A stretch of DNA of 64,000 nucleotides from Pseudomonadota bacterium (lineage in GTDB: Bacteria; Pseudomonadota; Gammaproteobacteria; Burkholderiales; Burkholderiaceae_C). Below the pieces are notes generated by a model. That model was not told the origin of the DNA. It made no database searches and saw nothing but the letters and a program-made list of their open reading frames with translations. Positions 6,508 through 62,939 of this stretch are shown piece by piece. Made by a program: the position numbers and the translations under genes. The DNA is taken from the NCBI GenBank assembly GCA_040384685.1, contig JAZKIV010000036.1:44445-108444 (forward strand), written 5' to 3'. Every line of letters starts with the position of its first letter. The first letter of the stretch is position 1.

Positions 6508-6520
6508 GGCCGAGGAAAGC

Positions 6521-26734: not shown

Positions 26735-28993
26735 TCAGGAGGTCTTGTCGACCTGCACCCAGTTGACCTCCATGTAGCCCCAGTTTTTGGAAATCCTGAA
26801 CGTGTTGGCGCCGGCATTCAGCTGCGCCGTGAGCTGGATGTTCTGCCAACCCAGATTGCTTCCCTGCAGCGGAAACGCGATCTCCTGCGCCGCACCGCCG
26901 TTCACGGCCACGTTGTTGTGCTGGTCGTTGTACACGTGGTAGCGGATCGTGATTGTGTACGTGCCCGCAGCCATGTTGTCGAAATGCAGATCCAACCAGG
27001 ACCCCGCTTGCGAAAAGTCGCCGACATAGCCCGGCCCGTCGTAGCCCGCGAGCGGCGAGCTCGCGGCGGAAACGCCGTTCATAGTGCCCGCGCCCGCATA
27101 CACGCGCGATGACGTCATGGTGCCGCCGCCACCGGTGCTGCCGCCGGTCGGCTGGAGCGAGATCGAATCCAGGTCGATGTAGCCCCAGCCCGCGGCGACC
27201 GCGACCGTGTTGGCACCCTGGTTCAGGGGCACGTTCGAAACCGTCACCACATTCCACGCCGGATGCGTCGCCGGGAACGGCACGGCGACCGGCGCTGCTC
27301 CGTTGACGATCACGTTCTCCTGCTGCGGCGTATACGCGTGGTAACGGATCTGGATGTCGTAGTTGCCGGCGGCGACGCCCTGGAAGGTCGCCGTCGTCGT
27401 GCCCGTGCCGCCGTAGTACACGTAGCCTGTTCCCGTGTAGCCGGCCTCGGCGGTCTGGACGGCGAGATCGGAGGTCCGGTTCGCGTCCTCGGCCTGGATG
27501 GTCATGGACGGCGGCGGGGGAGGCGGCGGCGGCGGGGGTGGCGTGTTGCTCCCCTCCGGAATCCACCAGTTGCCCGACGCGACGATCATTCCGAGCAGCT
27601 CGAGTTCCGAGTCGTAGTAGCCCATCTCCGGCCAAGGCAGTGCCCAGCTCCAGCAGTTGTCGAGCAGCGTCTGGAACTGCGGGTCGCTCATCGCGGCAGC
27701 CATCACCCCCGCGGCCATACCCCTCAAAGCCTCGGCGTCGGAGAAGCGGGTGCCATCGAGCCGGTACAGGCCGGGGAAGTACGGCCGCATATTTCCTGCC
27801 GCGCCTGGCCCGGGACCGGGCTTTTGGGGATTCGGCCAATCGGGGTGATCGGTGTTGACCCAATGCGTGTTGAAGAATCTCCCGATGCGCGTGAGATATC
27901 CATTCGTGCCTGCCCATCTGGGGTCCGCAGAAAAAACGTAGTCGCTCGCGAAGCGCCAGGGATCGCGGTACGCGTTGGATCCATACGCATCCGTGAAAGG
28001 GGTGCCTTCCGCCGGTGGGCTGTCGCCGGGCGGATACGGAATGGCGTCGGTGGGATTCGCGGTGGCCGAGTACTTGATCCAGTCGGGCAACAGCCCGGTG
28101 GTCTGGCCATTCGCATCCAGCGCATGATGCTCCTGCATATCCGCGATGAGGGCGAAGCTGCGGGGAATGACCTTGTCCGTCCAGAACGTGTCGCCCGTCG
28201 CCGCGGCGAAGGACCGGAAGTGGCCGATCATCAGGTCGGACGTGCGCGTCATTCCCTGCGGCTTGAAATACTGTCCACGGCTCAGCATGGCGCCGGTGTC
28301 CGCATCCGTGTTGACCAGCTTGATGGCCGTGATCGTCCGGATTGCGCGCTGCCTGTAGTTCTGCGGGGAGCCGTCGATGCCGTTCGACCCCCACTGCTTG
28401 TCCGCCATCAGCAAGGCCAGCGCGATGTCGAGGTCGCCGTCGACAGCGTTGTAGGAATCGGGGTTGGTCCCACCGACGCACCACGCCATCAGGTAGTCGC
28501 GCGCGTAGCGTGTCTGCCCGCCCTCGGTGAACGTCGCCGTGATCGTGGCCGTCGCTGGATTGCTTGCCACCGTCGCCAGCAGGCCGTCGAAGAGCGTCTT
28601 GGCGTTCGGGTCACCATACTGCCCGCCGGCCATGGTGACGGCCAGCAGCATCGCGTAGCCCATGCCTTCCGACACATACGTGCAGTCGGGCTTGCTGAAT
28701 GCGTCGTACGCCTGGTTGCCGTTCCACACGATGCGATCCGTCTTCCACTTGCTATACCGTGTTCTGAGTTGCTGATCGAGCGTCGTGCGGTCCGCGGCAG
28801 TGACCTGGATGCCCGCCTTGTAGGCCTGCAGTCGCCCGCCGAAGGGATAGGCTGGCGCCGGATCGGGTGCCGCCATCGGTGCTGCCGCTGCCGCAGGCGC
28901 CGACGGACCGGCTGTGGAGCCACCTCCGCAGCCGGCGACGAGTGCCGCGGTCACGGTAGCGCCAAGCAGCGCACTGAAGAACCTGGAGATCAC
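26735..28993 (-). CDS. lipoprotein glycoside hydrolase family 8 with Pro linker and two CBM35/CBM6-like modules
   Basis: GTG start with GAGGA RBS; lipobox LVAGC; SEGMGYAM, DGDLDIA, NAYRDPWR and SGNWW GH8 motifs; poly-Pro; two beta-sandwich repeats ending WGYIDLD and WGYMEVN. Confidence 0.82.
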   Translation of the reverse strand: MISRFFSALLGATVTAALVAGCGGGSTAGPSAPAAAAAPMAAPDPAPAYPFGGRLQAYKAGIQVTAADRTTLDQQLRTRYSKWKTDRIVWNGNQAYDAFSKPDCTYVSEGMGYAMLLAVTMAGGQYGDPNAKTLFDGLLATVASNPATATITATFTEGGQTRYARDYLMAWCVGGTNPDSYNAVDGDLDIALALLMADKQWGSNGIDGSPQNYRQRAIRTITAIKLVNTDADTGAMLSRGQYFKPQGMTRTSDLMIGHFRSFAAATGDTFWTDKVIPRSFALIADMQEHHALDANGQTTGLLPDWIKYSATANPTDAIPYPPGDSPPAEGTPFTDAYGSNAYRDPWRFASDYVFSADPRWAGTNGYLTRIGRFFNTHWVNTDHPDWPNPQKPGPGPGAAGNMRPYFPGLYRLDGTRFSDAEALRGMAAGVMAAAMSDPQFQTLLDNCWSWALPWPEMGYYDSELELLGMIVASGNWWIPEGSNTPPPPPPPPPPPSMTIQAEDANRTSDLAVQTAEAGYTGTGYVYYGGTGTTTATFQGVAAGNYDIQIRYHAYTPQQENVIVNGAAPVAVPFPATHPAWNVVTVSNVPLNQGANTVAVAAGWGYIDLDSISLQPTGGSTGGGGTMTSSRVYAGAGTMNGVSAASSPLAGYDGPGYVGDFSQAGSWLDLHFDNMAAGTYTITIRYHVYNDQHNNVAVNGGAAQEIAFPLQGSNLGWQNIQLTAQLNAGANTFRISKNWGYMEVNWVQVDKTS

Positions 28994-29168
28994 TTTGCGT
29001 TCCTCGTTTTCCGGAGAAAGAGAAACGAGTGTGTGTTGCCGTGACAAGGCAGGTGTGTAGCAGACCGGTAAGAAACGGCCGCTGACGAGGCAACAAACTT
29101 CTTTCGTCCCGCTAGATGTGCCACGGATATGGCCACAATGGGCTCTTCATCCACAGCCCGGAGGCGGC

Positions 29169-29453
29169 GTGCAGGAACCCGAATTCAGCAACAACGAAGC
29201 GGCCCACCAGTACGAACTGAAGCAGGACGGCAGCGTGGCCGGCCATGCGGCGTACGACGAGCAGCCCGGCCGCGTGCGCTTCACCCACACCGAGATCGAC
29301 CCGAAGTACGAAGGCCAGGGGCTCGGCTCCAAGCTGGCCAAGCAGGCGCTGGACGACGTGCGCCGGCGCGGGCTGAAAGCCGTGCCGCAGTGCCGCTTCA
29401 TCGCCGCCTACATCCAGCGGCACCCGGAGTATTCGGACCTGGTCGCGGGCTGA
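29169..29453 (+). CDS. small GNAT-like protein (YjdJ/Acetyltransf_CG type)
   Basis: FTHTEIDPKYEGQGLGSKL...PQCRFI; GGAGG before the GTG start. Confidence 0.85.
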   Translation: MQEPEFSNNEAAHQYELKQDGSVAGHAAYDEQPGRVRFTHTEIDPKYEGQGLGSKLAKQALDDVRRRGLKAVPQCRFIAAYIQRHPEYSDLVAG

Positions 29454-29467
29454 CGCCCGCCGGCGTT

Positions 29468-29929
29468 TCAGCCGGCCGGGTCCAGCGGCTTGCCGAAATG
29501 CAGGCCGACGATGCGGCAGCCCTGGTTCATCCAGAAGCGCTGCGCCACCGCGTTGGTGACGAAGGTGTCCAGCACGATGCGCTCGCAGCCGCGCTCTCGC
29601 GCGATGCGTTCCAGCGCGTGCCACAGCAGCTGCCCCAGGCCGCGGCCACGCTCATCGTCGCCGACGATGAAGTGGTCGACGTACAGGTACCTGCCGTAGC
29701 AGAAGCGGTTCTGGATCCAGTAGCCGCTCATGCCGAGCATCTGCACTTCAGCCCTACCCTCGCCTTCCTCGAAGGCGCCGATGCATTCCCAGCCCCCGGC
29801 TTCGACGTCGTCCAGCCGCCGCAGAAGCGTGTCCTCGGCAATCGAGGGATAGAGCGCGCGCAGATGGAGCAGGAACGCTTCCTGGTCGCGCGGAAACCGC
29901 AGCGGGCGCAAGACTGCCGCCTGCATCAT
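29468..29929 (-). CDS. GNAT N-acetyltransferase
   Basis: LYVDHFIVGDDERGRGLG acetyl-CoA motif A, NAVAQRFW. GGAGG before 29929; an alternative ATG at 29947 overlaps the eamA-like stop. Confidence 0.88.
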   Translation of the reverse strand: MMQAAVLRPLRFPRDQEAFLLHLRALYPSIAEDTLLRRLDDVEAGGWECIGAFEEGEGRAEVQMLGMSGYWIQNRFCYGRYLYVDHFIVGDDERGRGLGQLLWHALERIARERGCERIVLDTFVTNAVAQRFWMNQGCRIVGLHFGKPLDPAG

Positions 29930-29943
29930 CGAACCACCTCCAC

Positions 29944-30840
29944 TCATGCGGTGCGCGCCCGCGGCACGGGCGCAGGTTTCAGGGCCATCGGCACCACGTG
30001 CACGGCCACGCCGGCCAGCACCACGGCGGCCGACACCAGCAGCTGCACGCTCAGGTTCTCGTCCAGCAGCAGCCAGGCCAGCGCGACGCCGAACACCGGG
30101 ATCAGCAGCGCGATGGGCGAAGTGGCGGCCACGCCGACCGTGCCGATCGCCTTGCCCCACAGCACCTGCGCCACCGCGAACGAGGCGATCACCACATAGG
30201 CCACCGGCAGCCAGCCGGCCAGCGGCGCCTGCACCAGCGCCTGCAGCGCCGGCGGCGCGCCGGGCAGCGCCAGCTCGCGCGCCAGCCAGATGGCCGGCAG
30301 GCAGATCAGGCCGCTGGCGCACTGCAGCCGGATCACGCTCTCGGTGCTGCGCTTGATGGTGGTGTTGGCGAAGGCCCAGCCGGCCGCCGCCAGCAGGCAG
30401 ACCGCGCTGGCCAGCCAGGGCGCCTTGCTGCCGCCGGTGGCCAGCACGCCGGTGAGGCCGGCCAGGCCCAGCACGCTGCCGGCGATGGTGGTGGTGCGCA
30501 CCGATTCGCCCAGGATCAGCCAGCTGAGCGCCAGCGAGATGAACACCTGGAACTGCATCAGCAGCGCCGCCAGCCCGGGCGACAGGCCGAGCTGGATGGC
30601 GACGGTGGACAGCAGGTACTGGCCGATGCCCGAGCACAGCGAATACAGCAGCAAGGTCGTCACCGGCATCTTTCTGGGCCAGCCGACGATGGGAATCAGC
30701 GCGGCGACGAAGGCGAAGCGCAGCGCCGTGAGCAGGTACGGATCGAAATGTTCGAGCGCGAGCCGCACCGCCACGAAGTTGCCGCCCCACAGGACGGCGG
30801 CGGCCACCGCCGCCGCATACGCCACGCCCCTGGACGTCAC
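29944..30840 (-). CDS. EamA/DMT family exporter
   Basis: LWGGNFVAVR, LTALRF, about ten hydrophobic segments, SPIALLIPVFG. Confidence 0.9.
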   Translation of the reverse strand: MTSRGVAYAAAVAAAVLWGGNFVAVRLALEHFDPYLLTALRFAFVAALIPIVGWPRKMPVTTLLLYSLCSGIGQYLLSTVAIQLGLSPGLAALLMQFQVFISLALSWLILGESVRTTTIAGSVLGLAGLTGVLATGGSKAPWLASAVCLLAAAGWAFANTTIKRSTESVIRLQCASGLICLPAIWLARELALPGAPPALQALVQAPLAGWLPVAYVVIASFAVAQVLWGKAIGTVGVAATSPIALLIPVFGVALAWLLLDENLSVQLLVSAAVVLAGVAVHVVPMALKPAPVPRARTA

Positions 30841-31754
30841 GCCGCCGCCTCCAGCGCCGCGGACCTGCCGGTCTCGCGGGCCGACTCGAACACATCGGCC
30901 AGCATGGCGTAGTAGCGGTTGGCCACCTGCAGCCGCAGCTGGACACCGGTGGCCACCTCGGCCGTGAGTTCCGGGCGGGCCTGCAGCATCGGCAGCACCA
31001 CCTGGTTGAGCAGGTCGTCGCCGTGCTTGGCATCGATCTTCACGTGCATCTCGTGATAGTAGATGATGTCCTCGGGCACGCCCAGCCTGCGCATGCCCTG
31101 CACCGCGCGCGCGAAGCGCCGGGGCGCGGTGTGCTCCAGCAAGGTCAGCGCGCCCATCAGCTTCACGCAGTGCTCGCGCCGGACCGACAGCAGCAGCAGC
31201 AGGTTGCCGTTGGCCAGCGCCTCGGCGGTCGGCTGCACGAAGCGGCCGAACCGGGTGCCGTCGATGGCGTCGCGGAAGTACGCGGCCGAGTCGCAGAACA
31301 GGCGCGTGTGCATCTGGGTCTCGTCGCCCATGCCCATCTCGTCCCAGTAGTTGGCGGCCAGCGCCACCTTGGCCGCGCCCTTCAGGCCCATCTGCGCCAT
31401 CGCGATCACGTCGTCGAAGCGGCCGTCCACCTGCTCTTCGTAGAGCACGTAGACCGACAGCTCCTGCAGCGTGGCGTGCTGCGCCAGGTGGTCGAAGAAG
31501 GGTTCGGCCGCGGCCACCTGCTCGCGAAAGCGCGCGCGGTACCAGGGCTCGAAGTCCTCGGCGCGGCGCGGCAGCGCGGCGGTGTCGACGGTGGCCAGCT
31601 CGCGCGCCAGCCAGGCCGATTCGACCGCCTGCGTCGCGTCGCGGTGCGCGGCGAGCGCGGCCGCGTCGAACTCCTGCGGGCCGGCCAGTTCGCGCAGGTA
31701 CTGCGCGTTCAGCAGCAGCTGCGACGGCAGGCTGTACGGGTCATGCGTGTGCAT
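30837..31754 (-). CDS. heme-oxygenase-like dimetal oxidase (HDO; iron-containing redox enzyme family)
   Basis: NYWDEMGMG...MHTRLF, LEH, and HEMHVKIDAKH give the E,H / E / H,D,H ligand pattern. Confidence 0.82.
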   Translation of the reverse strand: MHTHDPYSLPSQLLLNAQYLRELAGPQEFDAAALAAHRDATQAVESAWLARELATVDTAALPRRAEDFEPWYRARFREQVAAAEPFFDHLAQHATLQELSVYVLYEEQVDGRFDDVIAMAQMGLKGAAKVALAANYWDEMGMGDETQMHTRLFCDSAAYFRDAIDGTRFGRFVQPTAEALANGNLLLLLSVRREHCVKLMGALTLLEHTAPRRFARAVQGMRRLGVPEDIIYYHEMHVKIDAKHGDDLLNQVVLPMLQARPELTAEVATGVQLRLQVANRYYAMLADVFESARETGRSAALEAAA

Positions 31755-31755
31755 T

Positions 31756-32346
31756 TCAGAATGCCTTTCGTTCGTGGACGAAGTCCTTCAGGTCCGGCTT
31801 GCTCTTCCAGAACGGCTCCAGCGGATGGTCGCCCAGCGCCTCCACGTATTCGGAGCGCTCGGCCTGCTGCAAGGTGGGCAGGTAGCGCGGGCAGTTCGGG
31901 AAGATGTCCGTCACCGCCACGCTGACCGCGGCGTGTGCGCCCTTCAGCGAGCGCACCAGTTCCGGCTCGGTCACCACTTCGGCACGGCCGTGGATGCGCA
32001 GCTTGCGCTTCTCTCCGGAAAACTCCAGGAACAGCAGCGCCACGCGCGTGGTCGCGCGGATGTTGCCCAGCGTGCGGAACATGCCGTTGCCGTCGTAGTC
32101 GGGAAACACCAGCGTGTGGCCGCCGTGCAGTTGCACGAAGCCCTCCGGGCCGCTCTTGACCGAGCAGTCCAGCGTGCCGTCGGCGGCCGACGAGGCGATG
32201 AAGAAGAACTGAGCCTTGCCGATGATTTCCGCATCGGTCTCGTTGAAGGCGGTGCGGCGGCGCGTCTGCTCGATGCGCTCGGCGATGCGGGTGGTGCCCA
32301 TCTCGGCCTGCAGCGCCTTCTGTTCGGCGTGAAAGAACTCGGACAT
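31756..32346 (-). CDS. pyridoxamine 5'-phosphate oxidase-like FMN-binding protein
   Basis: DCSVKSGPEGFV, FPDYDGNGMFRTLGNI, FPNCPRY. Confidence 0.85.
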   Translation of the reverse strand: MSEFFHAEQKALQAEMGTTRIAERIEQTRRRTAFNETDAEIIGKAQFFFIASSAADGTLDCSVKSGPEGFVQLHGGHTLVFPDYDGNGMFRTLGNIRATTRVALLFLEFSGEKRKLRIHGRAEVVTEPELVRSLKGAHAAVSVAVTDIFPNCPRYLPTLQQAERSEYVEALGDHPLEPFWKSKPDLKDFVHERKAF

Positions 32347-32358
32347 GTCGGCCTCCTG

Positions 32359-33069
32359 TCAGCGGAACTCGATCACCAGCACGTCGCGGTAACCCGGCCT
32401 GGCCGGGTCCGCGGGCTGGATGGCGGTGGTGTCGTGCAGCACGGTGTCGTCGCGAAACACCATGATGTCGCCGCCCGCGTCCAGGCGGCCCTGGAACGCG
32501 GCCTCGTGCGTCAGCAGGTCGAACAGCGTGGTGTCGCCGCCGATGAAGTTGATGTGGTTGGCCATGAACAGGCAGCTGAACTTCACGCCGTCGCGGTGCT
32601 TGCCCTCGGGCACCGGTTTGCCGGCTTCCTCGGACCTCGCCACGATGCGGTTGAAGTAGGTGTTGATGCGCCAGCGCGGCTGGTCTTCCAGCACACTGTA
32701 GGCCGCGCCCAGCAGCTTCAGCACGCGCTGCACCACCTGGTTGTTCACGATGGTGTCGGTCAGCGGCGCGAAGTGGCGGTCCACCCCGCCGTTGAGCGGG
32801 TTGAAGTACTTCGGCTGCGAATAGGGTGCGTGCGGCTGCACTTCCAGCCGGTCGTCGCCATGGGTGTAGACGAAGCGACCGAAGCGGCGCAGCCGGTAGG
32901 AGCCGCCGTCGTTCATGTAGGCGTCGGGCGGCAGGTCCTCGAAGATGGCCTGGAACGCGCGCCAGTCGTCCAGCGCCGTCAGGTCTTCGCCGAGAACCTG
33001 CGCGGTGGTGCCGATCACGAAGCGCTCTTCGGCAAGGGTGTCGAGTCCCGAGGTGGTCACGTCATGCAT
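32359..33069 (-). CDS. 2-oxoglutarate/Fe(II) dioxygenase (PF10014/BsmA/IDO-like)
   Basis: YRLRRF, PEGKHRDG (HxD), distal LHD, C-terminal RDVL. Confidence 0.8.
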   Translation of the reverse strand: MHDVTTSGLDTLAEERFVIGTTAQVLGEDLTALDDWRAFQAIFEDLPPDAYMNDGGSYRLRRFGRFVYTHGDDRLEVQPHAPYSQPKYFNPLNGGVDRHFAPLTDTIVNNQVVQRVLKLLGAAYSVLEDQPRWRINTYFNRIVARSEEAGKPVPEGKHRDGVKFSCLFMANHINFIGGDTTLFDLLTHEAAFQGRLDAGGDIMVFRDDTVLHDTTAIQPADPARPGYRDVLVIEFR

Positions 33070-33943
33070 AGCTGGCCTTCCTGCTGTTGTAGATGTCCTG
33101 GATGAGGTCGAAATAGGAACTGTTCTGGAACACGATGCGCGACGCGATGCGTTCGTGGAACGCGCGGAACGCTTCCGGGCGCAGCGCGGGAGCGAGGTGG
33201 TGCTCCACGTGGAAGTTGTTGCCGTTGGTGAACCAGGTGGCCAGCCAGCCGGCGCGCACGGTGCGCGTGTTCTCGAACACCGAAGGCGACTTGGCGCAGC
33301 CCCAGTGCTCGGGCAGTTCCAGCAGCGTGTGCATGCAGGCGGCCAGCGGGAAGGCCAGCAGCAGCACCGCGTCGAACGGGCGGAACACGGCGGCCAGCGC
33401 CATCGCCGCCAGCACGATCGCGCCGAAGGCGGCGTAGTCGCGGCGGATGCGGCGCTCGTTGTTCCTGTTGTAGACGCGCCCGATGGGCGCGCCGGTCCAT
33501 GCCGCCCACACCAGCTGCGCCACGCGCACCCAGTGCGGCAGCATCAGCAGGTTGGCCGCCAGGCGCCACGGCCGTTCGTTGTCTTCCTTGGAGAACTGGA
33601 AGAACTCCGAGTCGTCGTCGGTGCCCACGTGCTGGTGGTGGTGCAGATGGCGGTCCTGGTAGTGGTGGAAGGAGATCAGCAGCGGCAGGCCGAGCACGAA
33701 GCCCAGCGCGCGGTCCAGCCCGCGGCTGCCGGTGCCGGTGCTGTGCAGCGCCTGGTGCTCCAGCTCGATGCCGTGCGCGAAGGCCATGGCCACCAGCAGC
33801 ACGCCTGCCGCCTTCATCCACCAGAATTGCATGCCCGCCAGAGCGGTACCGGCGGCTATCATCAGCGCCCACACAGCGCATTTCGCAAGAAACACCATCG
33901 GCCGATTAGCGACCAGGTCTTTGTAGTCGATTCCCTGATTCAT
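33062..33943 (-). CDS. membrane fatty-acid-desaturase family enzyme
   Basis: Three His boxes HQALH, HLHHH and HVEHH with hydrophobic spans. Start uncertain (33943 or 33991). Confidence 0.85.
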   Translation of the reverse strand: MNQGIDYKDLVANRPMVFLAKCAVWALMIAAGTALAGMQFWWMKAAGVLLVAMAFAHGIELEHQALHSTGTGSRGLDRALGFVLGLPLLISFHHYQDRHLHHHQHVGTDDDSEFFQFSKEDNERPWRLAANLLMLPHWVRVAQLVWAAWTGAPIGRVYNRNNERRIRRDYAAFGAIVLAAMALAAVFRPFDAVLLLAFPLAACMHTLLELPEHWGCAKSPSVFENTRTVRAGWLATWFTNGNNFHVEHHLAPALRPEAFRAFHERIASRIVFQNSSYFDLIQDIYNSRKASYA

Positions 33944-34365
33944 ATTTTTTGAGACGAGTGCATGCCTCGCGCCGTTTTGGCTGCGATTCATGGTCAAGAG
34001 AGAGCCTCGCGTGCGCCGGAGGGCATGGAATGCCGGCATCGCAAAGGGAATGTGATGAGAGAGAGTGCGGTTGTTCTTCTTGTGTGTGCCTGTCGTCCTT
34101 CCCGAGGTGCCAATAGATGTCCGCCCGCGAATGCGGGCGGAGCGCGACTGCGCAATATGTCTACTGCTTACCCAGGGCGACGTGGGCCTTGATGGCCCGC
34201 CGCGGCGGTGCGGGGCCCGCACCGATCCTCCCTGGCGCACCTGGCCCGTGAATGGAGCCGGTGCTTTTTTTGCGCAGGGCGGACCTTAGCATTCATCTTT
34301 ACGGCCAGCAAGAGTACCTGTGTATTGATGCTGCCAATTCCGCGCATCATCTTGCTGACTTATAT

Positions 34366-35505
34366 CTATATGCCGAGCTCACGCAGAATGTCGGCATTGT
34401 GTTGCCCGACGCCGGGCACCTCGTCCATGCGGTGGTCGAAGCTGCTGTTGCGCCCCGGCGGCAGCAGCGCGGGGACTGCGCCTTCGGGCGTGCCGACCTC
34501 GCGCCAGCGGTCGCGCGCCTTCAGTTGCGGGTGCGCCCACAGGCCGGCCATGTCGTTCATGCGCGCGTGAGCGATCTGCGCTGCGTCCAGCCGCTGCTCC
34601 ACCTGCGCGATGTCGAGTGCACCGAAGACGTGCAGGATGATGGCCTTCAGCTCGGCGCGGTGCGTGTTGCGCTTCGCGTTGGCATCGAAACGGGGGTCGG
34701 TGGCAAGTGTTGGGTCCCGCAGCACCTTCTCACAGAACAGCTTCCACTCGCGTTCGTTCTGCAGGCCCAGCATCACCGTGCTGCCGTCGCCCACGGCAAA
34801 CGGGCCGTAGGGGTAGATGCTGGAATGCGAAGCGCCGTTGCGCGGCGGCGGCGGCGCGCCCTCGAAGGCATAGTACATCGGGTAGCCCATCCACTCGGCC
34901 AGCGACTCCAGCATGGAGACGTCGATGCGGCTGCCCTCGCCGGTGCGCTCGCGCTGCAGCAGCGCGGCCAGGATGCCGCTGTAGGCATACATGCCGGCGG
35001 CGATGTCGGCGATGGAGTTGCCCGCCTTGCTCGGCTCGTCCGGCGTGCCGGTGACCGACAGCATGCCGGCCTCGCTCTGGATCAGCAGGTCATAGGCCTT
35101 CTTGTCGCGGTAGGGGCCGTCGTCGCCGTAGCCCGAAATGTCGCAGACGATCAGCCGCGGATGCTTCGCATGCAGCGCCTCGAACGACAGGCCCATGCGC
35201 GCCGTGGCGCCCGGCGCCAGGTTCTGCACCAGCACGTCGGCGCGCGCCAGCAGCGCGACGAGCACCGCCATGTCCTGTGCATTCTTCAGGTCCAGCGCCA
35301 GGCTTTCCTTGGAGCGGTTGGTCCAGACGAAATGCGAGGACTGGCCGCGCACCCGCGTGTCGTAGGCGCGCGCGAAGTCGCCCGTGCCGGGCCGCTCCAC
35401 CTTGATGACGCGCGCGCCCAGGTCGGCCAGCTGGCGGGTGCAGAACGGCGCGGCGATGGCGTGTTCGAGGGAAACGACGGTGATGCCGTCGAGCGGTCGG
35501 GTCAT
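34366..35505 (-). CDS. CaiB/BaiF class III CoA transferase
   Basis: LADLGARVIKVE, NRSKESLALDLK, AYDLLIQSE. Confidence 0.92.
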   Translation of the reverse strand: MTRPLDGITVVSLEHAIAAPFCTRQLADLGARVIKVERPGTGDFARAYDTRVRGQSSHFVWTNRSKESLALDLKNAQDMAVLVALLARADVLVQNLAPGATARMGLSFEALHAKHPRLIVCDISGYGDDGPYRDKKAYDLLIQSEAGMLSVTGTPDEPSKAGNSIADIAAGMYAYSGILAALLQRERTGEGSRIDVSMLESLAEWMGYPMYYAFEGAPPPPRNGASHSSIYPYGPFAVGDGSTVMLGLQNEREWKLFCEKVLRDPTLATDPRFDANAKRNTHRAELKAIILHVFGALDIAQVEQRLDAAQIAHARMNDMAGLWAHPQLKARDRWREVGTPEGAVPALLPPGRNSSFDHRMDEVPGVGQHNADILRELGI

Positions 35506-35518
35506 GGGTGGATGGCTT

Positions 35519-36673
35519 TCAAAACGACCGCGGCAGCCCGAGCACATGCTCCGCCACGTAGGACAGGATCAGGTTGGTGGAGATCGGCGCCACCTGGTAG
35601 AGCCGGGTCTCGCGGAATTTGCGCTCCACGTCGTATTCGGCGGCGAAGCCGAAGCCGCCGTGGAACTGCAGGCAGGCGTTGGCCGCTTCCCAGCTGGCCT
35701 TGGCGGCCAGGTACTTGGCCATGTTGGCCTGCGTGCCGCAGGGCTCGCGCGCATCGAACAGGCGGCAGGCTTCCCAGCGCATCAGGTCGGCCGCCTCCAC
35801 CTCGATGTGCGCTTCGGCGATGGGAAACTGCACGCCCTGGTTCTGGCCGATCGGGCGGCCGAACACGGTGCGGTCCTTCACATAGCGCGTCACCCGGTCG
35901 ATGAACCAGCGGCCGTCGCCGATGCATTCGGCGGCGATCAGGGTGCGCTCGGCGTTCAACCCGTCCAGGATGTATTTGAAGCCCTGGCCTTGCGCGCCGA
36001 TCAGGTTCTCCGCGGGAATTTCCAGGTTCTCGAAGAACAGCTCGTTGGTTTCGTGGTTCACCATGTTGGCGATCGGCCGCACCGTCATGCCGCGGCCGAT
36101 CGCCTCGCGCAGGTCGACCAGGAAGATCGACATGCCCTCGGACTTCTTCGTTACCTCGGCCAGCGGCGTGGTGCGCGCCAGCAGGATCATGAAATCCGAA
36201 TGCTGCACGCGCGAGATCCAGACCTTCTGGCCGTTCACGACGTAGCGGTCGCCGTGCTTCACGGCGGTGGTCTTGATCTTCGTCGTGTCGGTGCCGGTGC
36301 TGGGCTCGGTCACGCCCATGGACTGCAGCCGCCATTCGCCGCTGGCGATCTTCGGCAGGTAGTGCCGCTTCTGCGTTTCCGAGCCGTGCCGCAGCAGCGT
36401 GCCCATGTTGTACATCTGGCCGTGGCAGGCGCCGGAGTTGCCGCCCGAGCGGTTGATCTCCTCCATGATCACAGAGGCCTCGGCCAGCCCCAGCCCCGAG
36501 CCGCCGTACTCCTGCGGGATCAGCGCGGCCAGCCAGCCGGCCTCGGTGAGCGCGGCGACGAAGGCCTCGGGATAGGCCCGCTCCTGGTCGATCCTGCGGT
36601 GGTATTCGTCCGGGAATTGCGCGCACAGCGCGCGCACGGCGTCGCGGATGTCCTGGTAGGCGGGGGTCGGCAT
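35519..36673 (-). CDS. acyl-CoA dehydrogenase
   Basis: VTEPSTGTD, NGQKVWIS, FHGGFGFAAEY, RETRLYQV. Start 36673 or 36682. Confidence 0.92.
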   Translation of the reverse strand: MPTPAYQDIRDAVRALCAQFPDEYHRRIDQERAYPEAFVAALTEAGWLAALIPQEYGGSGLGLAEASVIMEEINRSGGNSGACHGQMYNMGTLLRHGSETQKRHYLPKIASGEWRLQSMGVTEPSTGTDTTKIKTTAVKHGDRYVVNGQKVWISRVQHSDFMILLARTTPLAEVTKKSEGMSIFLVDLREAIGRGMTVRPIANMVNHETNELFFENLEIPAENLIGAQGQGFKYILDGLNAERTLIAAECIGDGRWFIDRVTRYVKDRTVFGRPIGQNQGVQFPIAEAHIEVEAADLMRWEACRLFDAREPCGTQANMAKYLAAKASWEAANACLQFHGGFGFAAEYDVERKFRETRLYQVAPISTNLILSYVAEHVLGLPRSF

Positions 36674-36714
36674 GGCCGCCATCTTGCCTTGCGCCGCCGC
36701 GCCGGACAAATCGG

Positions 36715-37635
36715 CTACGGCGCCGGCGCGCTCCAGTTCGGTGCGCCGAATGTGGACTGCAGGAAACGGCTGAGCGCCTCGGCGGCGACGCCGGGCTGGC
36801 GCCGCGTGCTCCACAGCAGCGTGATGTCCACCGGCGCCAGCGCGTCCAGCGGCCGCGTTTCCACCCGCGCGCCCTCGCGCGCGAACGGCCGGTAGGCGAC
36901 GTCGCTCAGCACCGTGACGCCCATCCCCTGGGCCACCAGGCTGCGTACCGCCTCGATGGACTGGACCCGGAAGCGGATGTCCGGCACCAGGCGGCGCCGC
37001 GCGAAGATCTCGCGCGTGCTGTCGCCCATCTCGTCCACGTCGTACAGGATGTAGGGCTGCCTGGCGATGTCGGCCAGCGTGACCTGGCGCTTGGCCAGCA
37101 GCGGATGGCCGGCACCCAGCCACAGCTGGCGGCGCGAACGGGTCAGCACCCGCGCCTGCACGCCGGCAGGCAGCTTGGGGTTGAAGCGCAGCACCGCCAG
37201 GTCGGCCCGGCCGCCGGCCACCGCCGCTTCCGCCTGCACGCGCGTGGCTTCCTCCACGGCCAGCCGGACCAATGGGTAGGCGGCGGCGAAACGCGCCAGG
37301 GCCGGCACCAGGTAGTAGCCCAGGGTCGACGACGAAGCCAGCAGCCTGGCCGAGCCTTGCAGTTCCGCGGTCGCGCCGCCGGCTTCCACGCCCGCCGCGG
37401 CCACGGCGGAGGCGATGTGGCGGGCGCGCTCCAGGAACCGCTGGCCCTGCAAGGTCAAGGCGACGCCGCTCGCATGCCGGCGCTCGAACAGCCGGCAGCC
37501 CAGGGCCGCTTCCAGTTCGCGGATGGCCGCCGTCATGGCCGATTGCGTCACGTGCACCCTGGCCGCGGCGCTGGTGAACTGCCCGGCTTCCGCCGCCGCA
37601 AGGAAGTACTCGACCTGCTTCAGCGTGAACTGCAT
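36715..37635 (-). CDS. LysR-family regulator
   Basis: FTSAAARVHVTQSAMTAAIRELE...LFER helix-turn-helix. Confidence 0.92.
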   Translation of the reverse strand: MQFTLKQVEYFLAAAEAGQFTSAAARVHVTQSAMTAAIRELEAALGCRLFERRHASGVALTLQGQRFLERARHIASAVAAAGVEAGGATAELQGSARLLASSSTLGYYLVPALARFAAAYPLVRLAVEEATRVQAEAAVAGGRADLAVLRFNPKLPAGVQARVLTRSRRQLWLGAGHPLLAKRQVTLADIARQPYILYDVDEMGDSTREIFARRRLVPDIRFRVQSIEAVRSLVAQGMGVTVLSDVAYRPFAREGARVETRPLDALAPVDITLLWSTRRQPGVAAEALSRFLQSTFGAPNWSAPAP

Positions 37636-37735: not shown

Positions 37736-38497
37736 ATGAAAACCATCGGTATCGTCGCCCACAGCGCGGAAGGCGCCGGGCTGTGCTTCCTCGCTGCCTG
37801 CCGCGCCGGCGGTGAATTGCTGGGCGAGCACCTGCACCCGCCCATCGCCATGAGCGCCATCGCCATGGGCCTGAGCATGCCGGGCTGGTGGGCCAATGAC
37901 CTGGAACAGGTCAAGCCGCACCTGCTGCGCGGCATCGAGATGGTGGCGCGCTCCGGCGCCGACTTCTTCGTCTGCCCCGACAACACGGCGCACCTTGCGC
38001 TGGAGCGGATGCAGCTGCCGCTGCCGGGCCTGCACATCGCCGGCGTGGTCGGCACGGAGACCGTGCGCCGCGGCTTCTCGCGCGTGGGGCTGCTGGGAAC
38101 GCGCTGGACCATGTCGGGCACGGTCTATCCGGATGCGCTGCGGCGCCATGGCGTCGAGCTGCTGGTGCCCGATGCGCAGGAGCAGGAAGAATTGAACGAA
38201 CTGATCTTCCGCGAGCTGTGCAACGGCCGCTTCGCGCCCGCCACCACCGCAAGCTTCCTGCGCGCCATCGAGCGCCTGAAGGTGCGCGGCGCGCAGGCCG
38301 TGATCCTCGGCTGCACCGAGATCCCGATCATCGTGGACGACCGCAATGCGGCGCTGCCGACGCTCGACTCGACGCGGCTGCTGGCGCGCTACGCGGTCGA
38401 GCTGGCGCTGCGCGACAGGCCTCTGCCCGCGCAGCAGGACGGCTGGCTCGCGCCGCCGGTGCTCACGGCGCCGGCCGGCTCGCCTTCAGGGATGTGA
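37736..38497 (+). CDS. aspartate/glutamate racemase family protein
   Basis: CPDNTAH, GLLGTRWTM, ILGCTEI. Confidence 0.85.
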   Translation: MKTIGIVAHSAEGAGLCFLAACRAGGELLGEHLHPPIAMSAIAMGLSMPGWWANDLEQVKPHLLRGIEMVARSGADFFVCPDNTAHLALERMQLPLPGLHIAGVVGTETVRRGFSRVGLLGTRWTMSGTVYPDALRRHGVELLVPDAQEQEELNELIFRELCNGRFAPATTASFLRAIERLKVRGAQAVILGCTEIPIIVDDRNAALPTLDSTRLLARYAVELALRDRPLPAQQDGWLAPPVLTAPAGSPSGM

Positions 38498-41963: not shown

Positions 41964-44513
<2,550 letters not shown>

Positions 44514-46313: not shown

Positions 46314-46805
46314 CTAGTTCAGCCGCTTGATCGACAGCAGCATCTCGATGCGGGCCACGGGCTGGTCGCCGAATTCCTCCGGCGCCGTCACCAGCACCTC
46401 GATCGGGGTTTCGATGCGTTGCCGCGTGCGCGCCGCCTCCTCGCACACGCGCGACAGTTCCTCGCCCTGGATGCAGGTGAAATGCGCGCGGCCACCCACG
46501 CGCTTGTAGAACTGCGCGGACGAGGTCTTCACGATCGGCGGCACGACGTGGCCGGTGGCGAACATGTAGCGGATCGGGAACACGCCGGCCACCAGGTCGG
46601 CCGCGATGCTGAAGGCGCCGATGAACATGGAGTCGTGCAGGTTGCGGGTGCGCCGCGACAGCGGCACGCTGACCACCACCTTTTGCGCCGACAGCTCCTC
46701 CAGGCGCGGCTGCACGTAGCGCATCATCGGCACCCGCCGGACCGCCAGGTGGAACATCGCCTTCGCTTGCAGGCTTTGGGGCAGCAGGCCGATCAGCTTG
46801 TTCAT
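46314..46805 (-). CDS. hotdog-fold thioesterase-like protein (DUF4442/YiiD-like)
   Basis: TRNLHDSMFIGA, FYKRVGG...F.C. Confidence 0.75.
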   Translation of the reverse strand: MNKLIGLLPQSLQAKAMFHLAVRRVPMMRYVQPRLEELSAQKVVVSVPLSRRTRNLHDSMFIGAFSIAADLVAGVFPIRYMFATGHVVPPIVKTSSAQFYKRVGGRAHFTCIQGEELSRVCEEAARTRQRIETPIEVLVTAPEEFGDQPVARIEMLLSIKRLN

Positions 46806-46809
46806 GGCG

Positions 46810-47340
46810 TCATCGCTCCATCGCGGCGCGGGTCAGGCGGTCGGCTTCGATCCAGGCGCTGATCGCGCCCGGGAACGCCGGCGAAGCGGGGTCGGAGCCG
46901 AGCGCGGCGCGTGTCTCGGTGCTGCTGACGATGCCGCTGCGCCCGATGATCGCGCCCTTCAGGTGGCCGGCCGCCATGGTCTTGCCGTCCTGCAGGAATT
47001 CGAAGCGGAAGTAGCTCCAGCGCTCGTCCCAGCAGGCCATGGTGGTGCGCAGCGTGTAGCGGCGAAACGGCTTCAGCGCATGGCGGAACGACACCATCGC
47101 GCCGCCGAGCATCGGCAGCCAGCCCTTGCGCCGGGCGATGCGGAAGAACCCGGCGCGGCCGAAGTACTCGACCACGATGAGGTCGGTGATGGTCAGGTAG
47201 CGGCCGTTGTTCATGTGGCCATTGACGTCGAGGTCGCCCGGCCACACGCGCATCGTCATCTCGATGGTGTCGCCCAGGCGGATCGGCGGTTTCAGCCGCA
47301 TCCCCAGCCAGGTGAGCAACAGGCGCAGGTAGAGGTTCAT
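46810..47340 (-). CDS. acyl-CoA thioesterase (4HBT-like)
   Basis: RVWPGDLDVNGHMNNGRYL; ATGA overlap with the ligase gene. Confidence 0.85.
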   Translation of the reverse strand: MNLYLRLLLTWLGMRLKPPIRLGDTIEMTMRVWPGDLDVNGHMNNGRYLTITDLIVVEYFGRAGFFRIARRKGWLPMLGGAMVSFRHALKPFRRYTLRTTMACWDERWSYFRFEFLQDGKTMAAGHLKGAIIGRSGIVSSTETRAALGSDPASPAFPGAISAWIEADRLTRAAMER

Positions 47341-48935
47341 GCGCGGACGTCCTTTTGCGCCATGCGCTGTGCGTCCTGCGCCCGCAGGGTCTGGCGCAGG
47401 ATCTTGCCCGCCGCGCTTTTCGGGATGGCGGCGCAGGCGACGACCTCGGCGAGCTGCTTGTAGTCCGCCAGGTGCTGCCCGGCCCAGGCCTGGATGCGCT
47501 CGGGCGCATGCGAGCCGTCGTCCAGCGTCCGCGTCACCACGTAGGCCACCGGCAGCTCGCCGGCGCGCTCGTCGGGCCGGCCGATGACGGCCGCGTCGAC
47601 CACCGCGGGATGCCCGGCCAGCAGGGCCTCGAGTTCGGCCGGGGCCACCTGGAAGCCCTTCACCTTGATCAGCTCCTTCAGGCGGCCGGTGATGGAGAGA
47701 TAGCCGTCCGCATCGAACACGCCCAGGTCGCCGGTGCGCACCCAGCCGTCGGCGGTGAGCGTTTCCTGTGTCGCCGCGGGCTGCCGCCAGTAGCCGGTGA
47801 AGGCCTGCGGGCCGCGGAACCACAGCTCCCCCGGCGTGCCCGGCGGCAGGTCCGCGCCACTGGCCGGATCGACCACGCGCGCCTGCGTCCCCGGCAGCAG
47901 GCAGCCGCTGGAGCCGGGCCGGACGCGCCGCGGCGGATTCACCGTGATGCAGCCCGACGACTCGGTCATCCCGAAGCCCTGGCCGACCTGGCACTCCAGG
48001 CGCCCGGCGACCTTGCGCTCCAGCGCCTCGCCCAGCGGCGCGGCGCCGCACCCCACCATTTCCAGCGACGACAGGTCGTGGGCATCGACCAGCGGATGCA
48101 GCGCCAGGAACTGCATCACCGGCGGCACGGTGCTCAGGTAGGACACGCGGTGGGTGGCGATGGCCTGGAGGAAGGACGCCGGCTCGAAGCGGCCCAGCGT
48201 GACCACCTTGGCGCCCGTGGCCAGCCCGCACAGGGTAACGATGGTGAAGCCGGTGATGTGGAACATCGGCAGGAAGGCCAGCATCACCGCGCCCGCCGGC
48301 GTCGGCCAGACCTGCGTGTACTGGCGGATGTTGGTGACCAGCGCGCGGTGGCTGAGCATCACGCCCTTGGGCATGCCGGTGGTGCCGGAGGAATACGGCA
48401 GTGCCGCCAGCGCATCCGGCGCCGCGCATCCGGCCGGCTCAGCGTCGTCGCAAGCAAGCAGGCCGGCGAAGCCGATGCAGCCCGCCGCGTCTCCCGTCAG
48501 CACGATGCGCACGTCGTCGATGCCCGCCACCGCTTCGCGCACGGTCGCCAGCAGCACAGGGGCGGTGAACACGAAGCGCGCGCCGCAGTCGCGCAGCTGC
48601 CGCGCCAGGTCGGCGGCGCCGTAGCCGGGGTTGGCGCCGCTCACCACACCGCCGGCCGCCATGGCGCCGAAGGCGGCGACCGGCCAGTCCGGCGAATTGG
48701 GGGCGAACATCAGCAGCACGTCGCCCGGCCGCAGGCCGCAGGCGGCCCAGCCCGCGGCGCAGCGGCCGATCGCGTGGTCCAGTTCGCCGTAAGTGAGCTG
48801 CACGCCGGTGTCGCCGTCCAGCAGCGCGACCTGGCCGGGACGCTGCCGCGCGCCCGCGCGGATGAAGTCCGGCAGGTTCAGCGGCGGCACCGCGGCGGCA
48901 AGGGCGGGTCCCTCGATCACGGTTCGCGCGCCCAT
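47337..48935 (-). CDS. 4-coumarate-CoA-ligase-like acyl/aryl-CoA ligase
   Basis: LPYSSGTTGMPKGV, GQGFGMTE, RTGDLG, KELIKVKGFQVAPAELE. Confidence 0.88.
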   Translation of the reverse strand: MGARTVIEGPALAAAVPPLNLPDFIRAGARQRPGQVALLDGDTGVQLTYGELDHAIGRCAAGWAACGLRPGDVLLMFAPNSPDWPVAAFGAMAAGGVVSGANPGYGAADLARQLRDCGARFVFTAPVLLATVREAVAGIDDVRIVLTGDAAGCIGFAGLLACDDAEPAGCAAPDALAALPYSSGTTGMPKGVMLSHRALVTNIRQYTQVWPTPAGAVMLAFLPMFHITGFTIVTLCGLATGAKVVTLGRFEPASFLQAIATHRVSYLSTVPPVMQFLALHPLVDAHDLSSLEMVGCGAAPLGEALERKVAGRLECQVGQGFGMTESSGCITVNPPRRVRPGSSGCLLPGTQARVVDPASGADLPPGTPGELWFRGPQAFTGYWRQPAATQETLTADGWVRTGDLGVFDADGYLSITGRLKELIKVKGFQVAPAELEALLAGHPAVVDAAVIGRPDERAGELPVAYVVTRTLDDGSHAPERIQAWAGQHLADYKQLAEVVACAAIPKSAAGKILRQTLRAQDAQRMAQKDVRA

Positions 48936-49435
48936 GGGCCGGACCCGGTGCGCCGCAGCACGGCAGCGCGCTTGCCGAACGGCGCCGGCGTGACCTTGAA
49001 CGCCAGGTTCCACAGCTCGATGCGCTCCACCTCGATCTTCACGAAGACCGCATCGGGATCGTCCGCGCCGGCGGGGAACACCGCGTTCCACGCCGGGTTC
49101 CAGCGGCTTGCCAGCTCCGAAGGATCGTCGAGCAGGACCGCGCGGCCGCCGAATGCCGCATAGGCGCTGTCCGGGTCGTGCTGGTAGCCGACGGTGACGC
49201 GGGCGTCGCGCCGGATCTCCGCCGCCTTGCGCGAGGCCTTGCTGGTGAGGAACCAGACCGTCCACGCGTCCTCGCCCGGCACGCCCGGGATCTGCGAGAC
49301 CACGCGCGCATGCGGCGCGCCGTCCTCGCCCACGGTCGCGATCCAGCAGTGCCTGGCCGCCAGCGCCGTGCTGCGCGCGGCCGCCAGCAGCTGTTCGACG
49401 TGCGCGGCCTCCTGGCCGTCATCCGCAGACATCAT
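48917..49435 (-). CDS. PNPOx-like / general stress protein 26 flavin-binding protein
   Basis: PHARVV, WFLTSKASRK, IEVERIELW. Confidence 0.8.
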   Translation of the reverse strand: MMSADDGQEAAHVEQLLAAARSTALAARHCWIATVGEDGAPHARVVSQIPGVPGEDAWTVWFLTSKASRKAAEIRRDARVTVGYQHDPDSAYAAFGGRAVLLDDPSELASRWNPAWNAVFPAGADDPDAVFVKIEVERIELWNLAFKVTPAPFGKRAAVLRRTGSGPWAREP

Positions 49436-49470
49436 CCCGCCTCCTTTGTGCACCCTGCCCGAGCATCGCC

Positions 49471-49689
49471 TTATTCGAGCACGGCGGCAAACTTGGCGAA
49501 GGCGTATTCGGTCGCCCGCTCCCTGGCTTGCGGGCCGACGAAGATCGCCACCAGCGCGTCGCCGGCGGCCTCCTGCTGCGTGGCCTCGACCTGCCAGGCG
49601 TCGGTGCGTGCCGCGGAGGCGGACACGCTGGCCGCGATCTCGATGCGCGACAACTCGGGCGCGGCGTTTTTCTGCTTTCCATGGGACAT
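49471..49689 (-). CDS. 72-aa hypothetical protein
   Basis: Short ORF filling the gap in a same-strand gene run; IFVGPQARERATEYA. Confidence 0.5.
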   Translation of the reverse strand: MSHGKQKNAAPELSRIEIAASVSASAARTDAWQVEATQQEAAGDALVAIFVGPQARERATEYAFAKFAAVLE

Positions 49690-49721
49690 GGCTGGAACCT
49701 TTCTTGCTGGATGGAATGTGC

Positions 49722-52117: not shown

Positions 52118-52131
52118 GGTTCCTCCTTGGA

Positions 52132-53684: not shown

Positions 53685-53700
53685 GCGGCGGCTCCCCGGG

Positions 53701-56833: not shown

Positions 56834-56875
56834 CTGGTTTCCTTCGGATCGGGTGGATGGATGGGCGGCGGCTGC

Positions 56876-62361: not shown

Positions 62362-62458
62362 GCCTGCAGTTTGCCGTCAACCGCGTGCGTGAAAACCGCT
62401 TTTTCGGCTAGGCTCGTGCGGCCAAGCCGCATCGCGACCCATTTCGACCGTCACCAAC

Positions 62459-62938: not shown

Positions 62939-62939
62939 C

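Follow-up and report, generated by a model that had tools for sequence, protein, structure and literature searches.

The stretch of DNA analysed here, a 64-kb window of the metagenomic contig JAZKIV010000036.1 (coordinates below are those of the window), carries a compact operon in which four predicted redox enzymes are combined with an exporter and an acetyltransferase (Table 1). As the G+C content of the window is about 70%, genes were called by the G+C content of third codon positions (GC3). Six open reading frames, all on the minus strand, fill positions 29468-33943 and show GC3 values of 0.91-0.96 in the called frames. The recomputed junctions, read from the desaturase-like gene towards the GNAT gene, are -8, +12, +1, -4 and -4 nt, the last becoming +14 nt with the GNAT start at position 29929, and the six genes are translationally coupled. 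Shine-Dalgarno-like motifs are located 5' of the dioxygenase, the flavoprotein, the heme-oxygenase-like di-iron oxidase (HDO) and the exporter genes as well as 5' of the second GNAT start. At the latter, GGAGG is found 8 nt 5' of position 29929, and this start is better supported than the one at 29947. The start of the desaturase-like gene at position 33943 is supported by the sister genome of locus L001, in which an alternative upstream ATG is out of frame. An initial annotation, made from the sequence of the window, had described six minus-strand genes; these, their domain assignments and the junction lengths were all borne out by Pfam searches and the recomputed coordinates.

Table 1. Features of the operon and its two borders, in the direction of transcription.
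Feature	Position	Strand	Evidence and remarks
Presumed promoter region, 422-nt intergenic stretch 5' of the operon	33944-34365	-	86% identical to the counterpart in L001
Membrane di-iron desaturase/hydroxylase-like enzyme, 293 aa, first gene of the operon	33062-33943	-	PF00487 FA_desaturase, 1e-33
Fe(II)/2-oxoglutarate dioxygenase, 236 aa	32359-33069	-	PF10014 2OG-Fe_Oxy_2, 6e-55, 186 bits
PNPOx-type split-barrel flavoprotein, 196 aa	31756-32346	-	PF01243 PNPOx_N, 5e-13
HDO, 305 aa, putative N-oxygenase	30837-31754	-	PF14518 Haem_oxygenas_2, 5e-36
EamA/DMT-family exporter, 298 aa	29944-30840	-	PF00892, two repeats, 2e-25
GNAT N-acetyltransferase, 159 aa or 153 aa	29468-29947 or 29468-29929	-	PF00583 Acetyltransf_1, 7e-15; RGRGLG acetyl-CoA motif
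Gap of 14 nt between the operon stop and a convergent small GNAT gene	29454-29467		Short GC hairpin spans both stops

All four redox enzymes keep intact cofactor-binding residues. Against the NCBIfam models, all six proteins score below cut-off. Within the operon, the Pfam scan detected no nonribosomal peptide synthetase (NRPS), polyketide synthase (PKS) or ligase, and the operon likewise contains no pyridoxal-phosphate (PLP) enzyme, halogenase, or formyl- or carbamoyl-transferase.

A one-genome-per-species scan seeded with the HDO alignment, together with a contig lookup of homologous proteins, yielded 45 loci, which were sorted by tblastn with all six proteins into three HDO contexts, classes A, B and C. 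Class A is defined by the desaturase-like enzyme, the HDO, the PF10014 dioxygenase and the GNAT within one gene string, and comprises the window as well as L001, L003, L004, L006, L007, L009, L022, L025-27, L030, L032-34, L037 and L043-45. The nearest genome, a Ramlibacter metagenome-assembled genome (L001), carries the same six genes with amino-acid identities of 80-98%. Recurrence of the set in other genomes, on which the initial annotation had made its proposal depend, was found in Ramlibacter, Trinickia, Pseudomonas, Pantoea and Winslowiella, to which several metagenomic lineages are added. The gene order desaturase-dioxygenase-PNPOx-HDO-EamA-GNAT is seen in the window and in L001, and the same order followed by a seventh gene, argC, in L032/33 and L043-45, whose HDOs share 51-76% identity with that of the window. 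In Trinickia mobilis, Winslowiella iniecta and Pantoea agglomerans the order is desaturase-PNPOx-HDO-dioxygenase-(EamA)-GNAT-(ThiF)-ArgC, and several Pseudomonas carry desaturase-HDO-dioxygenase-GNAT-ThiF-ArgC. Membership is thus kept while the order shuffles, which points to selection for co-localisation and not to a chance grouping. A divergently split but complete cassette in L037 (3506-14006), which also includes an additional aspartate-semialdehyde dehydrogenase (Asd) and an outer-membrane channel, has a transposase gene on either side, and this suggests horizontal movement of the cassette.

The seventh gene encodes a paralog of ArgC, the N-acetyl-gamma-glutamyl-phosphate reductase (TIGR01851; 345-420 bits against an equivalog cut-off of 230); among the complete class-A loci, only the two of Ramlibacter are without it. 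A tblastn search of the entire 64-kb window gave no ArgC-like or ThiF-like sequence. Since the gene is lacking only in the Ramlibacter loci, the six-gene operon represents a lineage-specific version of a seven-gene operon; accordingly, the six genes of the initial annotation are present as described, but the complete operon has one more. The absence of a scaffold synthase, also put forward there, holds for the operon in the window, but not for Pantoea agglomerans, in which the class-A cassette continues straight into NRPS genes (C, C-A-T-C, T). The Pseudomonas cassettes are accompanied by a divergent regulator of the ArgP/LysG family (370 bits).

Class-B loci, found in Ideonella, Burkholderia alba, Paraburkholderia xenovorans and in L031 (with a PNPOx::HDO fusion), retain only the desaturase-like enzyme and the HDO of the class-A core, in combination with an Asp/Glu-type racemase, an EamA exporter or a PNPOx gene. 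The desaturase-like enzyme is thereby the most faithful neighbour of the HDO, as it accompanies it in both classes. In class C, found in Burkholderiaceae and Nevskia, the HDO belongs to a different cluster, whose other genes encode a ferredoxin, a second short HDO, three ATP-grasp ligases and a PLP-dependent decarboxylase. This class (L005, L008, L010, L011, L014-L021, L023, L028 and L029, the last two continuing with a catalase, a hydrolase and a transporter of the major facilitator superfamily (MFS)) probably represents an uncharacterised pathway of the ATP-grasp peptide plus HDO type.

The HDO scores 124.5 bits against PF14518, for which the gathering cut-off is 28.9. Among all PDB sequences HrmI is its only strong match (6e-39), with BesC next at 0.014, and a profile built from 20 members of its family retrieves HrmI at 3e-50, RohS at 5e-9, SznF at 1e-4 and BesC at 0.03. 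The AlphaFold2 (AF2) model is all-helical (pLDDT 92.9) and superposes on HrmI with a TM-score of 0.79-0.81; the top Foldseek matches are HrmI, RohS, FlcD, SznF, CADD and BesC. Residues E139, H149, E207, H237, D241 and H244 are invariant in 20 HDO homologs, and Y233 is conserved as well. The spacing of the six ligands equals that of E205, H215, E269, H299, D303 and H306 of BelK, which have been validated as metal ligands by mutagenesis (PMC11611017). HrmI and BelK convert the epsilon-amine of free L-lysine via N6-hydroxylysine into a nitro group (PMC13108848). As the nearest characterised relatives HrmI, RohS and SznF are all N-oxygenases, the HDO of the window probably works like an N-oxygenase, and N-oxygenation of an amino acid is, among the chemistries considered in the initial annotation, the one favoured by the profile. 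A lysine nitro-synthase activity as such is only possible. The sub-family is rare: a cut-off of E<=1e-30 selects 59 of 1.84 billion representatives clustered at 50% identity, and one of E<=1e-10 selects 312. Some relatives of the HDO (P0341, P0402, P0404, P0395 and P0388) are fusion proteins, the partners being arginyl-tRNA-synthetase catalytic, small-molecule methyltransferase, cyclic-nucleotide-binding (cNMP-binding) and diacylglycerol-kinase/NAD-kinase-like domains.

Directly upstream of the HDO, the flavoprotein gene stops 1 nt short of the HDO start. Its product matches TIGR04025 at 2e-23, which is below the cut-off, and no relative was found among PDB sequences. The AF2 model (pLDDT 88) displays a split beta-barrel, whose closest folds are the small FMN-binding electron-transfer protein of D. 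vulgaris, HupZ, YviC and F420-dependent reductases. In three separate 50%-identity clusters (P0039, P0294 and P0319) a full-length PNPOx protein, 37-46% identical to that of the window, is fused to an HDO. Moreover, a Streptomyces plasmid encodes a 40%-identical HDO followed by a 39%-identical full-length PNPOx protein within an otherwise unrelated cluster. Fusions in combination with adjacency across phyla provide strong evidence for a functional pair of HDO and PNPOx protein, and the flavoprotein is best read as the putative partner of the HDO and not as an independent oxidase. A subset of the PNPOx family has been recruited to HDOs. Reduction of an HDO by a co-encoded protein has been described for MboA and MboB, according to the authors maybe the first characterised pair of an HDO and a dedicated redox partner (PMC13185094).

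In the dioxygenase the facial triad H158/D160/H212 and the 2-oxoglutarate-binding R228 are invariant. Its ortholog group is sharply bounded, identities ranging from 92% to 51% and then dropping to at most 42%; the named orthologs belong to genera in which the HDO cassette occurs (Ramlibacter, Trinickia, Pantoea, Pseudomonas and Arenibaculum), apart from one of Rahnella aquatilis. The gene lies two genes 5' of the HDO in the window and directly adjoins it in Pseudomonas, Pantoea and Trinickia. The best PDB match is 3pl0 (34% identity, 7.6e-32), which is MpDO, used as template for the leucine hydroxylase MFL, followed by 9dqp (32%, 2e-29) and the cyclopropanase ScBelL (8jms; 31%, 2e-21), whereas the isoleucine dioxygenase IDO is matched at 4e-3. 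Enzymes of the PF10014 family act on free amino acids: IDO and MFL hydroxylate them, TqaL forms aziridines, and HrmJ and BelL turn 6-nitronorleucine into nitrocyclopropylalanine by ring closure immediately after the HDO has acted (PMC12006828, PMC10764440, PMC11611017).

The latter sequence of reactions could, in its strict form, also be that of the cassette, with the HDO making 6-nitronorleucine from L-lysine, the PF10014 enzyme converting it to 3-(2-nitrocyclopropyl)alanine, and the other enzymes reducing, hydroxylating or acetylating the product. No other pathway is known to use an HDO and a PF10014 enzyme consecutively, HrmI is by far the closest solved HDO, and ScBelL matches the dioxygenase much better than does the hydroxylase IDO; in addition, homologues of belL have been reported in Proteobacteria (PMC10764440), and PNPOx-fold proteins include nitroreductases. 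However, the HDO and the PF10014 enzyme are only about 33% and 31% identical to their counterparts, the tree places the HDO in a sister clade, and the dioxygenase is slightly nearer to the leucine-hydroxylase template MpDO. Neither the diaminopimelate (DAP) epimerase (belM/hrmT) nor the molybdenum (Mo) reductase (belN) of these clusters is present, the ArgC and ArgP context fits ornithine or arginine as much as lysine, and class-B loci keep the desaturase-like enzyme and the HDO without a PF10014 gene. A faithful copy of this pathway therefore appears rather unlikely.

The desaturase-like enzyme contains 12 histidines that are invariant in 16 orthologs. These comprise the His boxes H63-x3-H67, H99-x2-HH and H245-x2-HH as well as H57, H205, H213 and H263, and hydrophobic segments are found at residues 15-37 and 169-211. 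The nearest curated model is that of GntB (NF041365), which is matched at 5e-10 with 39.3 bits against a cut-off of 380 and hence below equivalog level. A PDB sequence search gave no informative relatives of this enzyme or of the GNAT. Since the enzyme belongs to an integral-membrane, lipid-modifying superfamily and the cassette has links to ornithine and arginine metabolism, a modification of ornithine- or lysine-lipids by the desaturase-like enzyme and the GNAT might be considered. This is extremely improbable, as the GNAT is a small PF00583 enzyme and not an acyltransferase of the OlsB type, the known substrates of the HDO and PF10014 families are limited to fatty acids and to amino acids, free or bound in peptides, and both the exporter and the NRPS context agree with a soluble product.

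For the exporter, the nearest NCBIfam model is the O-acetylserine/cysteine exporter EamA (1e-28, below the cut-off); an EamA gene is present in the versions of Ramlibacter, L032/33, L043-45, Trinickia (L006), L031 and Ideonella. The GNAT, found in every class-A locus, gives weak matches to the characterised enzymes ArsN1, streptothricin acetyltransferase and PhnO and is not closely related to any characterised protein. In loci that carry both ThiF and ArgC, the three genes invariably come in the order GNAT-ThiF-ArgC. The series recalls ArgA-ArgB-ArgC, an adenylase standing where the kinase would be, so that N-acetylation may be a step of the pathway, following a protecting-group logic, instead of or besides serving self-protection. 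Self-protection, as proposed in the initial annotation, may be a role of the acetylation, and the paralog of ArgC might alternatively represent a resistant version of the product's target.

The GNAT could also act on the nitrogen oxidised by the HDO. In that case the HDO would stop at the N-hydroxy amine, and its acetylation would give a metal ligand of the N-acetyl-N-hydroxy-ornithine or -lysine type, to be exported or, in Pantoea, incorporated into a peptide. In accordance with such a hydroxamate pathway, HrmI releases N6-hydroxylysine as an intermediate (PMC13108848), HDO and GNAT occur together in every class-A locus with an exporter in several versions, the GNAT gives a weak match to the IucB-type family PF13523, the cassette leads into NRPS genes in Pantoea, and a TonB receptor adjoins the Ideonella variant. 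The PF13523 match (E 0.002) is below the cut-off, though, the two C-H oxidases and the ArgC paralog would be left without a role, and no siderophore uptake genes adjoin the operon in the window. We regard this pathway as quite improbable.

Taken together, the cassette is proposed to tailor a free basic amino acid (lysine, ornithine or arginine, possibly in its N-alpha-acetyl form) oxidatively and to acetylate and export the product, the window containing the Ramlibacter version; the probability of this reading is estimated at about 0.5. A basic amino acid as substrate is suggested by the substrates of the nearest HDO and desaturase relatives, by the ArgC paralog, the ArgP/LysG-type regulator and the extra Asd, and by the fusion of an HDO relative to an arginyl-tRNA-synthetase domain, while the NRPS continuation in Pantoea and the exporters support a biosynthetic function. 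The HDO would activate O2 at a di-iron site of three histidines and three carboxylates and convert a side-chain nitrogen into a hydroxylamine or nitro group, as do HrmI/BelK, RohS and SznF. Most simply, the PNPOx flavoprotein would serve as flavin mononucleotide (FMN) electron shuttle that re-reduces the di-ferric site of the HDO in each turnover, like MboB for MboA; alternatively, it could process the N-oxygenated intermediate. The PF10014 enzyme would act next on a side-chain C-H bond, by cyclopropanation if a nitronate is present (HrmJ/BelL) and otherwise by hydroxylation (IDO/MFL). The desaturase-like enzyme might add a hydroxyl group or a double bond, as GntB acts on arginine, the GNAT would acetylate the alpha-amine, and EamA would export the product. 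In outline this agrees with the initial annotation, which had proposed the multiple oxidation of a single amino acid, with N-oxygenation among the options, and its export.

A bolder and only tentative extension regards the HDO and its dedicated PNPOx flavoprotein as a new two-component N-oxygenase that, together with a desaturase-fold amino-acid oxidase and the PF10014 enzyme, yields a nitro-, N-hydroxy- or cyclopropyl-bearing N-acetylated analogue of ornithine or lysine. This would be exported as an antimetabolite of arginine biosynthesis, and the co-transferred ArgC would be a resistant copy of the target that was lost in this Ramlibacter lineage. As a whole, this scheme is unlikely to be correct in every part, and the antimetabolite role in particular, already part of the initial annotation, is pure inference.

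Several observations weigh against the proposed tailoring of a basic amino acid or loosen its details. Identity between the HDO and HrmI is only about 33% (28-34% within the family), and in a neighbour-joining tree the proteobacterial HDOs form one clade that is sister to the clade of HrmI and P0083 and not placed inside it. HDOs with near-identical substrates can differ widely in chemistry, as exemplified by BesC and HrmI (PMC13108848). The dioxygenase is almost equally distant from hydroxylase-type enzymes and the cyclopropanase, so that its sequence does not separate hydroxylation from cyclopropanation. Of the 6771 matches of the flavoprotein family most appear to stand alone in housekeeping contexts, and the PNPOx gene is absent from the Pseudomonas cassettes, which shows that the flavoprotein is not indispensable. 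The copy in the window lacks the ArgC and ThiF found elsewhere, and its product may differ or be truncated. In the leader (33944-34365) no match to the sigma-70 consensus and no Rfam family above threshold was detected, the single Rfam match, SorX, being sub-threshold and on the wrong strand, and neither a promoter nor a regulator could be assigned. Finally, the window is part of a watershed metagenome contig, and its sequence was found in DNA metagenome runs only.

Upstream of the leader, a LysR regulator, an acyl-CoA dehydrogenase (396 aa) and a family III CoA-transferase (379 aa) are encoded at 34366-37635 on the minus strand, in an arrangement resembling the gcdR-gcdH-gcoT genes of glutarate/lysine catabolism. 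As the operon lies just 3' of these genes, and a GNAT together with an exporter constitutes a classic resistance module, the oxidases might degrade or inactivate an environmental amino acid or analogue, with the GNAT neutralising and EamA expelling it. However, the catabolic neighbours are kept only within Ramlibacter, while NRPS genes, ThiF/ArgC or transposases adjoin the cassette elsewhere; the cassette contains no hydrolase, dehydrogenase or transaminase to feed central metabolism, and the known HDOs from this branch are all biosynthetic. A catabolic or detoxifying operon is hence judged decidedly unlikely, and biosynthetic tailoring of a basic amino acid is preferred. The three genes themselves were rejected as members of the cassette: they are conserved only in the sister Ramlibacter genome and are split off by the 422 nt of the leader and by a GC-rich hairpin within it (about 34122-34141), and were accordingly treated as a separate operon. 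The hairpin probably marks the end of this upstream operon of gcdH-like and CoA-transferase genes. Directly past the stop of the CoA-transferase gene lies an AT-rich block of about 105 nt (34260-34365), near-identical in the window and L001 and ending in A7; no conserved open reading frame was found in it, a 5-nt indel in L001 breaking the frame. Further upstream, an Asp/Glu racemase (37817-38497) was likewise rejected as a cassette member, being only 28-30% identical to the racemases linked to class B.

At the opposite border, a small GNAT gene of the Acetyltransf_CG type (29169-29453, plus strand; PF14542, 3e-28) converges on the end of the operon, also in L001. The site formed by the gap and this gene is where other full cassettes have the ArgC paralog. 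Beyond it, a secreted GH8 glycosidase with two CBM35 modules and an 11-proline linker is encoded on the minus strand (26735-29047).

Two giant PKS genes (64-18052, plus strand; 2147 and 3832 aa) encode ketosynthase (KS), dehydratase, ketoreductase and acyl-carrier-protein domains with RhiE-like KS linkers. As Pfam finds no acyltransferase (AT) domain in them, the PKS, which runs past the left end of the window, looks to be of the trans-AT type; downstream of it follows an operon of an AMP-ligase and a liv-type ABC transporter. The PKS was rejected as scaffold synthase of the cassette, since it is located on the opposite strand, about 11 kb away, behind the transporter operon and the glycosidase, and no PKS lies near any other cassette copy among the loci compared. 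About 22 kb from the six-gene operon, a second candidate N-oxygenase operon (46314-59243, minus strand) comprises an AurF-like di-iron N-oxygenase (PF11583, 55952-56833), two FAD/NAD oxidoreductases, a short-chain dehydrogenase/reductase (SDR), an MFS transporter, a DUF2855 protein, a PNPOx-like protein (48917-49435), an AMP-ligase and two thioesterase-fold proteins. An open reading frame at 42875-44266 (minus strand, 463 aa) combines an N-terminal zinc deaminase of the MafB19-like/cytidine-deaminase type with a C-terminal alpha/beta-hydrolase domain. Over the last 2 kb of the window (62001-64000) the G+C content falls from about 0.70 to 0.56.

By March 2026 a function had been validated for only about a dozen HDOs, none of them from the present family (PMC13108848), and each newly validated HDO has so far led to unusual amino-acid chemistry. 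With only six to seven genes the cassette is compact, amenable to expression and a good target for genome mining. Its flavoprotein is a candidate for a natural redox partner of an HDO with a fold not yet linked to these enzymes, for which the three fusions speak, and the desaturase-like protein is possibly a second membrane desaturase-fold enzyme that acts on an amino acid. The ArgC paralog and the ArgP/LysG regulator provide a built-in hint to the biological target or the precursor pool. Despite the metagenomic origin of the window, the chemistry is approachable in tractable hosts, since orthologous copies are found in culturable Pseudomonas, Pantoea, Trinickia and Winslowiella.

Comparison with known systems revealed no characterised cluster of this composition: a full-text search of the literature found none, the Pantoea PNP and other named clusters gave nothing relevant, and together with the missed NCBIfam cut-offs this upholds the statement of the initial annotation that no characterised cluster with this combination is known. 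Its analogies to Bes, the oxyvinylglycines and RtxC, on the other hand, find no support in the sequence, given the marginal match to BesC and the lack of a PLP enzyme, a halogenase and a formyl- or carbamoyl-transferase. The clusters for beta-ethynylserine (Bes), 4-formylaminooxyvinylglycine (FVG; gvg) and rhizobitoxine (rtx) resemble the cassette in being small, free of megasynthases and devoted to the tailoring of free amino acids, with an HDO (BesC, GvgC) or the desaturase-fold RtxC plus amino-acid exporters; they differ from it by their PLP enzyme, halogenase, ATP-grasp ligase, formyl-/carbamoyl-transferase or RtxA-type synthase, none of which is found in the window.

The mangotoxin operon likewise combines an HDO with a co-encoded redox partner in a small operon without NRPS, uses an arginine-derived substrate (PMC13185094), and its product is thought to interfere with ornithine/arginine biosynthesis (PMC13185094). 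However, MboB is a flavin/Fe2S2 reductase and does not have the PNPOx fold; MboA, an acetylenase, uses a tripeptide that is built by two ATP-grasp ligases absent from the window, and the mbo operon includes an amidinotransferase-fold deiminase but no PF10014 enzyme, desaturase or GNAT (PMC13185094). As a match for the cassette it was rejected, since no ATP-grasp, Fer2 or amidinotransferase domain is present in the operon or its flanks. GntB of the guanitoxin pathway shares with the desaturase-like enzyme the PF00487 membrane di-iron fold and hydroxylates a free basic amino acid, L-arginine, at the gamma position, but the PLP cyclase, kinase and methyltransferases of the gnt cluster are lacking in the window. 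The cassette is not a mangotoxin, Bes, FVG, rhizobitoxine or guanitoxin system.

IDO, MFL, HilA, HilB and MpDO belong to the PF10014 family and have the facial triad in common with the dioxygenase of the window; IDO, MFL, HilA and HilB, however, are hydroxylases of aliphatic amino acids and are not paired with an HDO. Such a pairing is provided by HrmI/HrmJ of hormaomycin and BelK/BelL of belactosin biosynthesis, in which the genes of a PF14518 HDO and a PF10014 enzyme lie side by side and both proteins use a free amino acid as substrate, and the window HDO possesses all six metal ligands and the conserved tyrosine of HrmI. In contrast to these systems, the HDO is about 55 residues shorter (305 versus 362 aa in HrmI), genes for the DAP epimerase and the Mo-reductase are missing, and the hosts are Proteobacteria instead of Streptomyces; conversely, the desaturase-like enzyme, the PNPOx flavoprotein, the GNAT and the ArgC paralog are partners without counterpart in hrm and bel. 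HrmI/HrmJ and BelK/BelL, which were not among the comparisons of the initial annotation, are the sole precedent for an HDO and a PF10014 enzyme that work one after the other. In conclusion, the cassette is a real, conserved and uncharacterised relative of the small, megasynthase-free clusters in which an HDO and an Fe/2OG enzyme modify free amino acids.

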